Program-made: the position numbers and the translations under genes
The notes under the pieces: generated by a model
Databases searched by the model: none
What the model was told of the DNA's origin: nothing
What the model saw: only the letters and a program-made list of their open reading frames with translations
Virus record (IMG/VR): IMGVR_UViG_3300048670_000735
Span: 1-64,000 of that record
Strand: one strand, 5' to 3'
DNA length: 64,000 nt
DNA from: a virus
Lineage: Duplodnaviria; Caudoviricetes
Part shown: piece after piece, positions 52,819 to 58,800 of the stretch
Layout of the letters: the number at the start of each line of letters is the position of its first letter
Position numbering within the stretch: the stretch's first letter is position 1

Positions 52819-55800
52819 ATGGCAGATAATTTAATCACCACCAATATTACCGCCAATGCAGACTTTACGAGCTTAAGAGCTCAGCTAGCTGCAGTTACTG
52901 CCCAACTCATAAAACTTCAAGAAACAACTGCTGGAACAAACGCAAAGCTTGCAAATCAAATTGCAGTAATGAACAAGTCGTTTGCAACTACCCTTGGCTC
53001 TACTGGTCAGTTTTCACAGCACTTTGTTTCTTTAACTTCAGACGTAGAAAAGTTTGGAAAGAATTTAGATCGTGGCCGTCTTAAATTAAGTGAGTACTAT
53101 AACACTTGGAACGGCCACACTAAAAAATCAAGCAATTTAATTAGAGATCTTGCAAAGCAGCAGGTAATGCTTGAGCAGGCTATTATTCAGCCATTAGGTA
53201 AAAATGCACAGGGCTTAATGCAATACAACGTAATGGTTGCAAAAGGTCTTGATGAGATAAAAAACAAAACAGCTTTAGCTAGACAACAAGCTTCAATTAT
53301 GAATAAGGTCATGCAAGACGGTGCGGGCCAACTAATTAACTGGGGTAAAAATACACAGTGGGCAGGTCGTCAGCTTACAGTAGGACTTACAGTCCCACTC
53401 ATTGCCTTCGGAGCTGCAGCACAAAAAGCATTTAAAGAAGCAGACGCAGAGCTAGTAAGATTAACAAAAGTTTATGGCGGATTAGCCGCAACTTCATCTG
53501 AAGATTTAGCGCAAGTCAGAAAAGATGTAAAGGCTACTGCTAAAGAAATTGCTAGTTCCTACGGTGTAGCATATAAAGAAACAATTGCACTTGCAGCTGA
53601 TTTAGCAGCCACTGGACAACAAGGAAATGAGTTAATTGCATCAACTCAGCAAACAACAAGACTTGCTGTTCTTGGTGAAGTTGACAGACAAGATGCAATG
53701 AAAGCAACTCTTGCAATTCAAAATGCATTCAAGCAAAATACAAATGAGCTAACACAATCAATTGACTTCCTTAACGCAGTTGAAAACCAGACTTCCACAT
53801 CTCTTCAAGACCTAACTGAAGCAATTCCAAAAGCAGGTCCAGTTGTAAAATCACTTGGCGGAGACGTAAAAGATTTAGCTTTGTATTTAACTGCAATGAA
53901 AGAAGGCGGAGTAAACGCATCAGAAGGTGCTAACGCAATCAAATCAGCAATGGCATCTCTTATCAACCCTACAAAGGTTGCAAAAGAAATGTTTAACGGA
54001 TTTGGAATAGATATTGATAAAATTGTAACCTCAAATGCTGGAAACCTAACAGCAACAATAGTAGATCTTCAGTCAGCGCTAGACAGTCTAGATCCTTTAA
54101 GCAAGTCAAGAGCTATTGAGCAATTGTTTGGTAAATTCCAGTACGCAAGAATGTCTGCGCTATTTGAAAACCTAGGAAAATCTGGATCGCAAACACTTCA
54201 GGTTATGGATTTAATGAAGGCAAGCACACAAGATCTTGCAGCAATTTCAGAGCGAGAATTAAAGATGATGACAGAGTCAGCATCAGGACAATTCAAGAGA
54301 GCCTGGGCTTCTGTTCAAGCAGACTTAGCCGCTGTTGGAGAACAGTTCTTAAGAATAAGCACAAAGGTATTAATTGTTGTAGATAAAATTATTCAATTTT
54401 TTCAAAATTTGCCAGGCCCAGTTAAAACATTCTTAAATGCTCTGGGCGGAATCACAGCAATTGCTGGACCAATAATCATGCTTACAGGTGTACTCGGAAA
54501 CTTCCTAGGATACATCATTAAGGGTATATTTCATTTAAAGCAATTAGGTAAAGGCGGACAAAGCTTTAAATTTCTTACCCCTGAAATTATGGCAGCAGAT
54601 GCTGCAGCAAAAGGTCTTGCAACATCATTCTATAGTGATACAGAAGCAACAATTGTTTTATCTAATGCTGTAAATACACTTTCAGAATCATTTGCTAACC
54701 TTGAAATGAAAGCAAATGCTGCAAAGGTTGCTGTTCAACCAGCGGTTGCAACTGTTGGTGGAAGCGCAGTAGCTCCAGGAGTTCTTGGACAAAGAGTAGT
54801 TGATAAAAACAATCCGCTAATTGGTTCACCTTATTCAAGAGATATGTCACATTTGATTCCATCTCAAATGCCACAAATGGGAACAATATTTGGAACAGTC
54901 CCAGGTGCTGGCCCAGTAAACGTTAGAGTTGGAAAAAATCCTCAAGCGTACATGGACCAAGATCTTCCAAAGATCCCTGGAGTCACATCAGTAAATAACA
55001 CATCTACTGGAATTGTTGCAGCTGAAGCAGCAAAGTGGCATGCAATGACAGCAGCAATTGCAATGCAGTCAGAAGCAGAAATAAAAGTATTGAAAAAAGA
55101 AGTAATGGCAACGGGAACAATTACATCAAGCCTATCTGATTCTTATCAAGCATTGCTCCCAGAATTTTCTGAAATTACAAGTATGGCTGCACAAGAAACA
55201 GCTTTAATTGTTAAGCAGCTACAGCAAAGTAAAATAACAGCAGATGAAGCAAGAGCAAAAGTAATTCAGCTAAACGCAACAGTTGAAGCAATGCTTGCCG
55301 AAACAGCTCAAAAGATTGCAGCAGGACAAGGAAGAACTGTAGCCTTAACAACAGTTCCATTAACATCTCAACCTGTAGTAGACCCAATAACAGGTAAATC
55401 AAACATGAAAGAGATGTTCCACAAGGGAACAACAAAAGAAATTGCAGATAGAATTGCAAGAGCATTAGGTGGAGTCAGAACCTCTGGAGCGGGATACAAT
55501 ATTCAGACTACAAAGCCTCAGCAATTAAACGCAGGAGGAAGAGTATATGATCCATCAAGAGACGGCAACATCGTACCTGGAGACACATCAATTAACTATG
55601 ATAATACTCCAGCAGTTTTGCAAGAAGGCGGCTATGTATTAAATCAAGGCGCTTCAAAAAATAATCCAGACCTAGTTAGTCTTGCAAAAAATTCCCGAAA
55701 CTCTGGAGGAAAAATTGTACCAGCTGTAGTAACTCCAGGTGAGACTTACTTCCCTCCAGAAGTTGCTGAGACAATGATGCCTACACTTGAAAAGGCTAAC

Positions 55801-58800
55801 AGAGGTTCAAAAATATCATTAAGAAATGTCGGCGGATATATAGGTGGTCTTGTAAAAAGATCAAAGAAGAACTACGGAATTAGCTTTGAAGATTCAGAGC
55901 AGATGCGTAGATATACTGAATATCATACGTCATCAAATTTTGACCAGTATGCAAAAGCGGCTTCAATTGCAAATGATGCAGAAGCACTAGTTGCTCTTGG
56001 GCTAAGCCCAGAAGAAGCTGTAAAGGAAGCAGATCGCTGGTTTGAAAAGAGATACAATAAAGCTTTAGAAAATAACAATGGAGTATTTAAGCAATCAGAA
56101 TTTGATAAAGTTACACAAGAAAGCTATTCTGATTTACAAAAAGATTTAAAGAAAAGATACGGTATAACAAAACCTATCTCAAAAGAATGGCGCACACTTT
56201 CAAAGTCTGGAAGCCAGCAGATGAAGGCACAGCGCTGGAGATACACAAGTGGAAAAGTTGATTACACAGTAAGAAACAAAATATTTGATTTACTTGGAGA
56301 ACCAGGGAAGAGATTAAAGAAAGAGGCTGCCTTTGCAAATCAAGAGCGAGCACACTACACATCTGGAAGCACACAAGCTAAATCTGGATTTAACTATTTA
56401 GGACAGGCAGTAATACAGCCTTGGGAAATTAATCAGCTTGCTCACGAGCTTTCAAGATATGGAGTTATACAAAATTCATTTTCTTTGTCATCTGCTGAGA
56501 ATAAACAGCAGTTTGATAGAATTGCAAAAAATTTAGGATACTTAGATCACGATGACATGTTGGAAAGCTTAAAGGGCAAAAAGAGTTCTCCAGCAAAACC
56601 TCCTAGAGTATTTAAAGTTGAAAATGGAATGACAGCGCCATTGCGTAAAATGGTTTCTTCTTCACCTGCACAATTTAAAAATTACATGAGATTGCCAGCC
56701 GTAGCAAGAATGCTCACTTTAGCTGGAGCAAGACTTAATGCTGGAGGAGCAGTTGGTGGCTCAGTCCGTAAAGGAAAATATAATTACGGAAAACTTCCAG
56801 CATGGATAATCAGAAATGAAAAGATCAAAAACCTAGCCAACACTGATCCAGCACATGGTGTTTTACAAATTGGTAAATATCACCCAGCCTTGCATGTTAG
56901 AAATCAATATGTTGCTCCTTCTATTAGATATAAGAGTAACTATGAACCATTTACATGGGACAAAGGTCCTAATGCTGGTCAAACTTTCTATTCCCCAAGA
57001 AGAACTGGCGGAGCACCAGCATTTGAAACTGGAACAATAGAGACAAGAGCAAAAACTGCTCTATACAATTATATGCAGGGTGACTATCAAGCAATTAATG
57101 ATCCAGCAGTTCAGGCATATCTTTCAACCATAAGAACTAAATTTACAGGAACACTTCATAGAGGAGTTAGAAACATATCTAGCCTTCCTCCTGTAATTAG
57201 TAATTTAATTAAAGAAGGCAGATGGGATGATCTTGTAGGCAAAGAGTTTATTATGCGTCGCTCATCATGGAGCACAAATAAAGATACTGCAGAAGGCTTT
57301 GGTCAAATTCAGCTTATTGCAAACGTAAAAAATAGAAATGCTGTGCCAGCATCTGAAATATTTCCAAACTTAACATTCCAATCTCCACAGGGACCAGTAC
57401 CAGTAAACGAAAGTGAAGTTTACATGGGAGGTAAGTTTAGAGTTATTGGAGCTGATAAAAATAGATTAAAGCTACAAGCAATATATGATGCTGCTCGTGA
57501 AAATGGCGGACCAGTAAATGCTGGAAGACCTTATCTTGTTGGAGAAAAGGGTCCAGAAATCTTCGTTCCAAAAAATGCTGGAGGTGTAATTCCAGGATAC
57601 AACATGGGCGGAATGGTAAAGTCAATGATGATGAGCTCACTTGGATACATGGGTGGTTCTGCGCTTGGAGGAATGACAGGCTTGCCAGGCGGAGCAATGA
57701 TTGGCGGAATGCTTGGCTCAATGTTTGGAATGGGCGGAGGCTCATCTATGGGAAGAGCTCCAAGGCCACAAGCAGAAGGTCCATTAAGAGAAAATGGAAT
57801 GTTTGCAAAAAATTTATCTGCAGAGCATTTTACAAAACCAATAGGTCCAGCAGGAAAACTTGCAGATAAGTTAAATCTGCTTGGATCATCAGGTGGAAGA
57901 TTTTCTAGTGTTTTAACAAAAATAGGACCACTTCTTGCAAGACTTCCAATGGCATTTAATCCAGTTGGGGTTGCAATTGCAGCAGTAACAGCAGCTACAG
58001 TTCTTGGGGTTAAAAGATGGAAAGACCATAATGAACATTTAAGAATTGGAATGCTTCAATATAGCTTAACTGCAGAAGCAGCAAAAAAAGCTGGAGTAAA
58101 ATTTACTGATTACAATACAAAGCTAGCAGATACCGTTACAAATATTCAAGCAATAAGAGAAAGAAATCAGCTTTTGTATGAAAGCATGGAGTCTGCTGGA
58201 ATGCCAATAGAGATGACTATTGAGCAATATAAGAAATTGCGTAAAGAGGTTAAGTCATCTTATGCAGACCAAATTAAATTAATTAATCAAACAAAGGGAC
58301 CAGGGGATACAAGAAAGCTTGCAGAAGATCTTAAGATTCAGTTAATGGCAGCAGGCATGTCAGCAGAAGATGCAACAAAGAAAATTTGGGCAATGTTTAA
58401 ACTTTCTGAAAAAGCAAAAGACGCTGCAACATTTACATTAGGAAACTCTGGCTTTAATAACATAAAAGATGGTCAATCTGTAGCAGTAAGTGCAATATCC
58501 AGATACAGCGCTGCAGCAAAAGAAGGCGGACGTGAAGGCGCAGGCGCAGTACAAACTGGACTGACATCAATAGATGCTGGCATACAAGACATGATTGCTA
58601 GAAGCAAAAAAGCAGCCAAAGCAGACAAGTCTGGCAATACAAAAGTATTAACTGAATATCAGGCACAAGAAGCTATGCTTAATAAATTAAATTCTCTTGA
58701 GTCATCAAAAGCAAGATTAACAAAAGCAACAAGAGATGAAATGATTAAGCAAAACCCAGAACTTAAAAAGATTATTAATCCACTAGACACAATTGTAAGT

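Follow-up and report, generated by a model that had tools for sequence, protein, structure and literature searches.

A giant phage tape measure protein with linker-delimited, exchangeable internal domains that include a predicted ADP-ribosyltransferase

We describe here the unusual middle third of a tape measure protein (TMP) encoded in 64,000 nucleotides of virus DNA (the window, positions 1 to 64,000 of IMG/VR virus record IMGVR_UViG_3300048670_000735), and the question that the locus raises is what a protein usually viewed as a ruler or channel former, at most with a wall-degrading domain, may have been adapted to carry. The gene is a single open reading frame (ORF) at 52819–60312 on the plus strand, 7,494 nucleotides and 2,497 residues long by ORF call and translation. 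An initial annotation of the DNA had proposed that clustered N-x-G-G motifs delimit cargo cassettes in this protein, one of them resembling an ADP-ribosyltransferase (ART), and that the motifs act either as processing sites or as recombination anchors. The overall reading that we favor, and consider reasonably likely, is of a modular TMP with linker-delimited, swappable cargo, including an ART, that is delivered to the cell; the cassette and ART parts of this reading are well supported. The features that the argument needs are as follows.

52819 to 60312, plus strand: tape measure protein gene (P0001), a single ORF, assigned by PF10145, PHROG TMP families and gene position
55459 to 55824, plus strand: conserved block A, residues 881–1002, defined by BLAST (118 of 120 relatives) and invariant columns
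55825 to 55878, plus strand: leader/linker 1, residues 1003–1020 (NVGGYIGGLVKRSKKNYG), an internal repeat scoring 16.3 bits with the leader hidden Markov model (HMM)
55879 to 56736, plus strand: cassette 1 (insert 1), residues 1021–1306, a helical globular domain of 286 residues in an AlphaFold2 (AF2) model
56737 to 56790, plus strand: leader/linker 2, residues 1307–1324 (NAGGAVGGSVRKGKYNYG), an internal repeat scoring 20.4 bits with the leader HMM
56791 to 57042, plus strand: variable beta-rich subdomain before the ART core, residues 1325–1408, from comparison with the relative P0007 and strands in the AF2 model
57043 to 57492, plus strand: predicted ART core, residues 1409–1558, from Foldseek, invariant residues and a weak PF03496 match
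57160 to 57162, 57265 to 57273 and 57409 to 57417, plus strand: putative catalytic-site residues R1448, S1483-W-S1485 and E1531-S-E1533, respectively
57493 to 57618, plus strand: conserved 'VGEKGPE' block, residues 1559–1600, in 120 of 120 relatives, with phrog_30701 and phrog_1538 matches

The N-x-G-G motifs are a genuine cluster. The six listed by the initial annotation are all present, as NAGG at 55528 (residue 904), NSGG at 55699 (961), NVGG at 55825 (1003), NAGG at 56737 (1307), NAGG at 57574 (1586) and NMGG at 57601 (1595), and all fall within residues 904–1598, but a seventh, at 57499, reads E-N-G-G (residues 1561–1564) and is x-N-G-G rather than N-x-G-G. Residue shuffling rules out chance or low complexity as the source of the cluster, the six observed comparing with 1.01 ± 0.99 in 5000 shuffles, of which five gave six or more. 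Two of the motifs open the same extended leader, with the consensus N.GG.[IV]GG.V..[GS][KR].NYG, just as had been claimed for the two inserts: residues 1003–1020 and 1307–1324 align over 18 residues with 55.6% identity (E 6e-5) and form the top internal repeat when the protein is tiled against itself, self-BLAST of the whole protein returning the identity match only. A degenerate third leader at residues 1591–1602 scores 5.1 bits with the leader HMM and leads directly into a glycine zipper. The AF2 models are in keeping with the description of this region as non-helical or globular, in that they contain two folded domains and disordered leaders; the leader has predicted local distance difference test (pLDDT) values below 50 at residues 1–31 of one insert model and 1–18 of the other, and the linkers are predicted to be disordered spacers outside the folds.

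The conservation of the leaders is at the level of the peptide and does not reflect a recent DNA duplication, because the two differ at the DNA level (35 of 69 nucleotides in common, with a longest exact run of 7 nucleotides) and there is no direct repeat longer than 25 nucleotides in 55400–57800. Since they are not DNA repeats within the genome, any role as recombination anchors would be limited to pairing homologous positions in separate phages, a narrower form of the earlier suggestion. Among 197 distinct instances of the leader, K/R is kept in 95% and N in 60%; the search pattern fixed GG, [LIVM] and [YF]G. The leader model has no match in any other of the 181 ORFs of at least 60 residues in the 75,153-nucleotide record of which the window is part.

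Comparison with relatives separates the motifs that are cassette junctions from those that belong to the backbone. A search with residues 900–1660 found 136 proteins, all cluster representatives, at E ≤ 0.001, and the best 120 of the 136 were analysed; these are giant TMPs of 1449–4193 residues, on contigs that reach about 117 kb. The N-terminal 880 residues are kept in 119, block A in 118, the VGEKGPE block in 120 and the C-terminal coil in 119, and the variable segments are insert 1, present in 23, and the ART insert, present in 110. The inserts are not invariant among relatives, insert 1 being confined to that minority and the ART being replaced in ten. Block A contains the NAGG at 55528 and the NSGG at 55699, each followed by a PA.L..GE/GG..h motif, and is backbone, not cassette; the VGEKGPE block contains the ENGG at 57499, the NAGG at 57574 and the NMGG at 57601, with the third leader forming its end. 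The notion that N-x-G-G motifs delimit cassettes holds for leaders 1 and 2 and the degenerate third, so that just two or three are junctions, but not for the motifs at residues 904, 961, 1562 and 1586, which lie in backbone shared by 118–120 of 120 relatives and are part of conserved TMP motifs. The leader marks cassette borders in most relatives as it does in this protein, and a model built from instances of the motif matches most of them at about residues 1000–1020, 1250–1330 and 1550–1650, with three matches in 49, two in 30, one in nine, four in three and none in 29.

Homology between the TMPs breaks and resumes at these positions. The high-scoring segment pairs (HSPs) of BLASTP searches against the 120 relatives include 44 that end at residues 1020–1029, the end of leader 1, and 44 that start at residues 1300–1319, at leader 2, with a further 20 starts at 1330–1339 and 22 ends at 1600–1609. 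In comparisons of every protein with every other, 31% of the distinct central HSP ends (2127 of 6850) fall no more than 10 residues from a leader, where 840.7 (12%) would be expected if they were uniform. The junctions can be followed closely in single pairs. P0007 is 97–100% identical through '...GKYNYGK' (residue 1326), then diverges abruptly with a 47-residue indel to about residue 1408, beyond which the ART core is about 85–90% identical, the GPE block and glycine zipper are identical, and divergence sets in again at residues 1640–1735. Four loci were obtained at the nucleotide level, and homology to the viral contig L003 ends at 56791, one base beyond leader 2, and is back at 57015; that to L004 breaks off where leader 1 begins, at 55825, and is back at 56773; and that to L005 ends at 55513, is back at 56771 and ends again at 57593. 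In some pairs leader 2 is retained together with the sequence before it and in others with the sequence after it, which indicates an independent junction and not the 'leader' of one particular cassette.

The domains between the leaders differ in kind, not only in degree, as the initial annotation had anticipated for related phages. Slot-1 sequences, delimited by the coordinates of the first two leaders in 83 proteins, fall into 15 BLAST clusters and are mostly 220–315 residues long; in one cluster of ten and in some singletons the second leader had been missed, and single linkage at 40% coverage joined 79 of 81 sequences, as the leader and N-terminal ART residues were included. When ten of the clusters were compared by hhalign only three of 45 pairs were related, and there are therefore at least seven slot-1 families unrelated at the profile level. 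Slot 2, after leader 2, holds the ART or, in the ten relatives noted above, one other family of about 350–480 residues, for which hhalign gives probabilities of 0.2–0.7% against the ART and which is unrelated to it. In nine relatives searched with Pfam, the central cassettes gave no match. On a FastTree tree of the N-terminal 860 residues, with 66 rows and seven merged families, no fewer than 24 changes of the slot-1 label are required, where the minimum possible is six and the shuffled mean is 40, and well-supported branches alone force three to seven changes per family. Near-identical backbones with different cassettes are found, such as P0013 and P0014 against P0021, and P0073 and P0087 against P0089 and P0111. 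These comparisons support modular swapping, in which unrelated domains have repeatedly replaced one another while the backbone was conserved.

The second insert had been recognized as ART-like, and structure comparison bears this out. The AF2 model of insert 2, built on a 29-row alignment, has a mean pLDDT of 69, with 80–92 in the core and values below 50 in the leader and C-terminal GPE block. Foldseek against the PDB gives 36 matches at E ≤ 0.001 with probabilities of about 1.00, and all those listed are R-S-E ARTs, including the Listeria ART-ARH effector 8za7_B, C3bot/C3lim/C3cer/C3stau, ExoS, iota Ia, CDTa, C2-I, VIP2, HopU1, Certhrax, Plx2A, Vis and XopAI. All 110 ART-bearing relatives (26–100% identity) have the same residues at the positions of R1448, S1483, E1531 and E1533, and S1485 is kept in 108 of the 110. 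Insert 2 is thus predicted to be a catalytically intact R-S-ExE ART, the catalytic assignment resting on residue order, spacing and invariance. In the ART family an ExE motif indicates an arginine acceptor, and from this signature the target residue is probably arginine.

The ART family also seems to belong to these proteins and to few others. An exhaustive phmmer search with the ART against 1.84 billion representatives gave 44 proteins at E ≤ 0.001, nearly all of them 2200–3700 residues long with the ART at about residues 1200–1600, and a search among shorter proteins gave five ART and one insert-1 homologues, mostly contig-end fragments; the cassettes are private to this TMP clade. We also note a 399-residue protein (P0125, on a 9,715-nucleotide contig) in which the same ART family is joined directly to a TMP C-terminal GG..GSGTSDSI...GEYV module, and which could be a stand-alone cargo that docks like the TMP end, or a miscalled fragment.

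The occupant of the first slot is more enigmatic. AF2 gives a confident helical globular fold (predicted template modeling score 0.75), and no solved fold was matched by Foldseek against the PDB (best E 1.6) or by VIA (best Z 4.0). Assignment as a large polyvalent protein-associated domain was considered and rejected, the Atlas leads LPD39 (0.82) and LPD3 (0.77) being in the chance range. Among 18 aligned sequences of insert 1 a His (residue 1179) and an Asn (residue 1205) are invariant within the conserved stretch RAH..PG...K.SGF.YLGQAV.QP..IN.LA.ELSRYG, which may be a functional site.

The remainder of the protein and its setting identify the gene. The PF10145 (TP901/PhageMin_Tail) match scores 96.3 bits against a cut-off of 33.2 at residues 239–438, and nine PHROG TMP families match the 2,497-residue protein, with a best E of 1.5e-121. 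The gene is flanked by small ORFs in the chaperone position and by a 1093-residue minor tail protein; on the 5' side are an immunoglobulin-domain protein (phrog_2175) and two such small ORFs matching PHROGs with no function assigned, and on the 3' side the minor tail protein matches phrog_10359. The gene directly after the TMP gene (60309–60755) matches phrog_1194, a family with no assigned function. The order of the tail module matches that of the annotated Streptomyces phage Wofford, and the predicted gene product is a tape measure protein.

The source is an uncultured siphophage of roughly 115 kb, the 75,153-nucleotide record being rated 65% complete. The closest isolated phages are Streptomyces siphophages of about 131 kb, with 33–34% identity confined to residues 6–669, and the Wofford TMP contains no N.GG, leader or GPE motif. 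Megablast of 55400–57800 against isolated phages gave no matches, and a scan of 185,579 species genomes for relatives that might indicate the host found none. GC content at third codon positions is 0.19–0.26 throughout, and base composition does not distinguish the cassettes. Two antisense ORFs on the minus strand, 55211–55465 (84 residues) and 57443–57745 (100 residues), lie wholly within the TMP gene and are most likely spurious, and no Rfam family was found in 50000–64000. Elsewhere in the window, GC and AT skew are negative from position 1 to about 10 kb, where genes are probably on the opposite strand, and GC content falls to 0.28–0.32 at 10–14 kb. Further features of the TMP are listed here.

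53533 to 54132, plus strand: PhageMin_Tail (PF10145) core, residues 239–438, from Pfam
54427 to 54534, plus strand: first hydrophobic, transmembrane-like stretch, residues 537–572, from a Kyte-Doolittle window scan
57643 to 57753, plus strand: glycine zipper of nine in-register GxxxG, residues 1609–1645
57931 to 58023, plus strand: second hydrophobic, transmembrane-like stretch, residues 1705–1735, from a Kyte-Doolittle window scan
59989 to 60036, plus strand: second VG[DE].GPE copy, residues 2391–2406, an internal match to residues 1566–1581 at 44% identity

The VGEKGPE block is the sole part of the region that is common to the TMPs of isolated phages (63 records), among them Ralstonia, Vibrio, Roseobacter and Pseudoalteromonas phages and cyanophages. 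The GxxxG motifs of the zipper are in perfect four-residue register and follow immediately on the ART/GPE block, and residues ~1601–1735 form a third variable zone with nine BLAST clusters, the version in this TMP being present in 13 of 120 relatives; greedy family masking (seeds of at most 800 residues) merged multi-domain families, and the slot-3 diversity is a rough view only. With two hydrophobic and two coil regions and a second GPE motif, the protein resembles two tandem TMP-like units. In P0054, P0087 and P0057 a separate C-terminal variable zone (residues ~2480–2920) contains CHAP and LysM domains or an OmpA-family peptidoglycan-binding domain, and the same TMP family thus also bears classical wall-directed modules in some relatives. 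Prediction of a complex of three copies of residues 881–1025 returned a score of 0.00 ('no answer'), and is neutral as evidence.

These features suggest a plausible model for how the protein is built and used. The middle third of the TMP is a string of modules and not a ruler coil, in the order block A, the 18-residue glycine-rich linker L1, the 286-residue helical domain, linker L2, the beta subdomain of about 84 residues and the 150-residue ART, the VGEKGPE block, the nine-fold GxxxG zipper, and a transmembrane-like helix. Recombination between co-infecting relatives, in or near the linker codons, would swap whole domains in frame, and we place it there because these codons are the sole conserved islands in the region and are shared at homologous positions across phages. 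The TMP would leave the virion before the DNA, as is described for lambda and T5 (PMC12617516, PMC10038345); the channel is formed by ejected TMPs (PMC12617516). The glycine zipper and the second hydrophobic helix, which lie just after the cargo, may insert into the membrane, a glycine zipper being common to TMPs and the type VI secretion effector Tde1 and needed for translocation across the target membrane (PMC10240207). The cargo would then reach the cell, where the ART could use NAD+ to modify one or more host proteins at the onset of infection, a role akin to that which Alt of phage T4 plays from the capsid, and cassette 1 may add another, rapidly changing domain with an effector or counter-defence role.

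Several observations weigh against this model of delivered, swappable cargo. NAD+ is cytoplasmic, and this part of the TMP would have to arrive in the cytoplasm; the label of 'effector' for cassette 1 is likewise conjectural, since it has no recognizable function. The resemblance of insert 2 to solved ARTs is moderate, with target-normalized TM scores of at most 0.51, the PF03496 (ADPrib_exo_Tox) match scores 12.8 bits (E 0.077) against a cut-off of 23.4, and phmmer of the ART against PDB sequences matched no solved ART. The 29 of 120 relatives with no strict leader match have a variant junction, N.GG.VPGY..GG. HSP borders inevitably fall where conserved and divergent segments meet, and their clustering therefore indicates that the leaders delimit cassettes, which is not to say that leaders cause recombination. 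The count of exchanges depends on a FastTree tree with family labels taken from the clustering, and 17 of the 83 rows were excluded from it (P0002, P0008 and P0045 as duplicate or truncated, the ten-row missed-leader cluster, and four singletons). Lastly, the phage is known solely from metagenomes.

There are other plausible explanations of the linkers to consider. The one that survives best, although it is somewhat less probable than not, is that they are structural or assembly elements, serving for docking to the tail assembly chaperones or the tube lumen, or as hinges for storing bulky domains unfolded, and that the borders coincide with them merely because they are constrained islands between freely diverging domains. 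Conservation of the peptide with no DNA repeats is consistent with this, as is the clear backbone nature of the adjoining N.GG of block A and of the GPE block (118–120 of 120 relatives), the latter being common to the TMPs of unrelated phages. A related Gly-rich motif is also found in the TMPs of solved phages, the relatives' C-terminal 'GG..G.GTGTSDSI...SNGE.V' matching 8zdo_S and 8rk3_A. However, the kinship of the block-A motifs with this C-terminal GTSDSI...GE.V motif was examined with hhalign and rejected (2.7% and 20.6%, not significant), and a structural role leaves unexplained both the occupation of a slot by unrelated families, rather than by diverged versions of one domain, and the minimum of 24 exchanges that the backbone tree requires.

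A second alternative, plausible but doubtful, is that the linkers are processing sites, and that a cut at or near N.GG...NYG, made after tail assembly or at ejection, sets loose the helical domain and the ART as separate polypeptides. Such processing is compatible with the cassette model and would come on top of it, and the cutter could be a phage, host or intrinsic activity. There is precedent for TMP cleavage, lambda gpH losing a piece of about 14 kDa through a cut in a glycine-rich region, with neither site nor protease identified (PMC12617516), and T5 pb2 being cut between its hydrophobic stretch and its enzyme domain (PMC10038345). The linkers are also predicted to be disordered, and so accessible, and the 197 instances are conserved well beyond the needs of a flexible spacer. 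However, Pfam (E ≤ 1), as a scan with sequence profiles, detects no peptidase in the TMP; the absence of the leader from the other ORFs of the record argues against the site of a general maturation protease; the T5 cut follows an Arg and not a glycine motif; and no naturally split genes were found at the linkers, the few shorter homologues being mostly the contig-end fragments noted above. Release at the linkers, as the initial annotation had proposed for the motifs, is accordingly kept here as the less likely part of its scheme.

An extension of the processing explanation, and an unlikely one, is that the TMP is an injected polyprotein whose linkers are cleaved at ejection, by itself or by the host, freeing an arginine-specific ART and an exchangeable effector into the cytoplasm. 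If this were true, the slot-1 families, none of which has a Pfam match, would be a reservoir of host-takeover or anti-defence activities that are delivered before any phage gene expression, beside a glycine-zipper translocation element. The least probable alternative is that the variable slot is a decoy or escape surface, an exposed domain being replaced to evade a TMP-sensing host defence, for although slot 1 turns over fast while the ART and backbone persist and a 2026 editorial includes the tape measure protein in its list of phage proteins to which Avs sensors bind (PMC13728456), such sensors are described there as recognizing conserved-core folds, which are retained here, and the slot is always filled by a folded domain of 220–315 residues and never shrinks or is lost, which suggests that each occupant is functional.

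The modular TMP that we favor has parallels in several known systems, although it coincides with none of them. Cell-wall enzymes are embedded in the TMPs of mycobacteriophage TM4 and of staphylococcal phages, and with these and T5 pb2 our TMP shares a probable second role as vehicle for an enzyme, which is placed beside hydrophobic, membrane-active stretches; in T5 pb2 a cut after R1127 parts the enzyme domain from the ruler (PMC10038345). The enzymes of T5 pb2 and its kin are peptidoglycan hydrolases of the periplasm or wall, in contrast to the predicted NAD+-dependent ART here, and here the cargo slots number two or three and are separated by a conserved junction peptide. CHAP, LysM and OmpA domains are present in some relatives, but lie in the separate C-terminal zone.

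The MuF polymorphic toxins that temperate phages carry, including MuF-VIP2 of Microbacterium phages, are likewise virion proteins with interchangeable toxin domains, ARTs among them, which have been proposed to pass into the host along with the DNA (PMC5576092, PMC7302621). However, MuF is a head protein with a C-terminal variable domain, whereas the carrier here is a tail TMP with internal cassettes flanked by backbone, and PMC5576092 contains no occurrence of tape measure proteins. Polyvalent proteins, found in phages and conjugative elements, resemble this TMP in being giant multi-domain proteins that carry ARTs and other effectors, are delivered with DNA and are proposed to be split afterwards, but they are built around MPTase or another peptidase, of which Pfam finds none here, and are packaged in the head or delivered by conjugation (PMC5512222); the term 'tape measure' does not occur in that paper. 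As in polymorphic toxins generally, a conserved delivery part is combined with unrelated domains (at least seven families in slot 1 and two in slot 2), although the cassettes here are internal (residues 1021–1558 of 2497) with about 900 residues of backbone after them.

Junction motifs of polymorphic toxins include VENN in CdiA and PxxxxDPxGL in Rhs, and MARTX toxins carry effector arrays; toxin domains are exchanged by recombination where the constant part meets the variable one, and in Rhs and MARTX cleavage also occurs at this border. Our TMP is similar to CdiA, Rhs and MARTX in having a short conserved peptide at that border, although the motif is another one and the carrier is a phage tail protein instead of a secreted bacterial toxin; no cognate immunity gene was identified, covariation of the gene after the TMP with cassette type not having been examined. 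Alt of phage T4 is an R-S-E ART that is carried in the virion, injected at infection and modifies host proteins. It is a separate protein packaged in the capsid, whereas the ART here is an internal domain of the TMP; Alt is mentioned in PMC7824862 and PMC5576092. No paper that places an ART inside a TMP was found in full-text searches of the literature, and what sets this case apart from the known systems is the tail-ruler carrier, the internal cassettes, the predicted NAD+-dependent ART cargo and the dedicated junction peptide.

The organization described here offers a different perspective on what a tape measure protein may do, in that a whole clade (the 136 cluster representatives) appears to use the TMP for a conserved ART together with an interchangeable second domain. 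If the cargo acts in the cell, this would be the earliest possible intervention by a phage, ahead of its DNA, and the 'polymorphic effector' principle, known so far from MuF head proteins and secreted toxins, would be extended to include the tail. The junction peptide is a candidate cleavage motif, of interest as TMP cleavage is unsettled even for lambda, and it provides a handle both for locating cargo slots in other TMPs and for mining the seven or more uncharacterized families for functions in host takeover or counter-defence.

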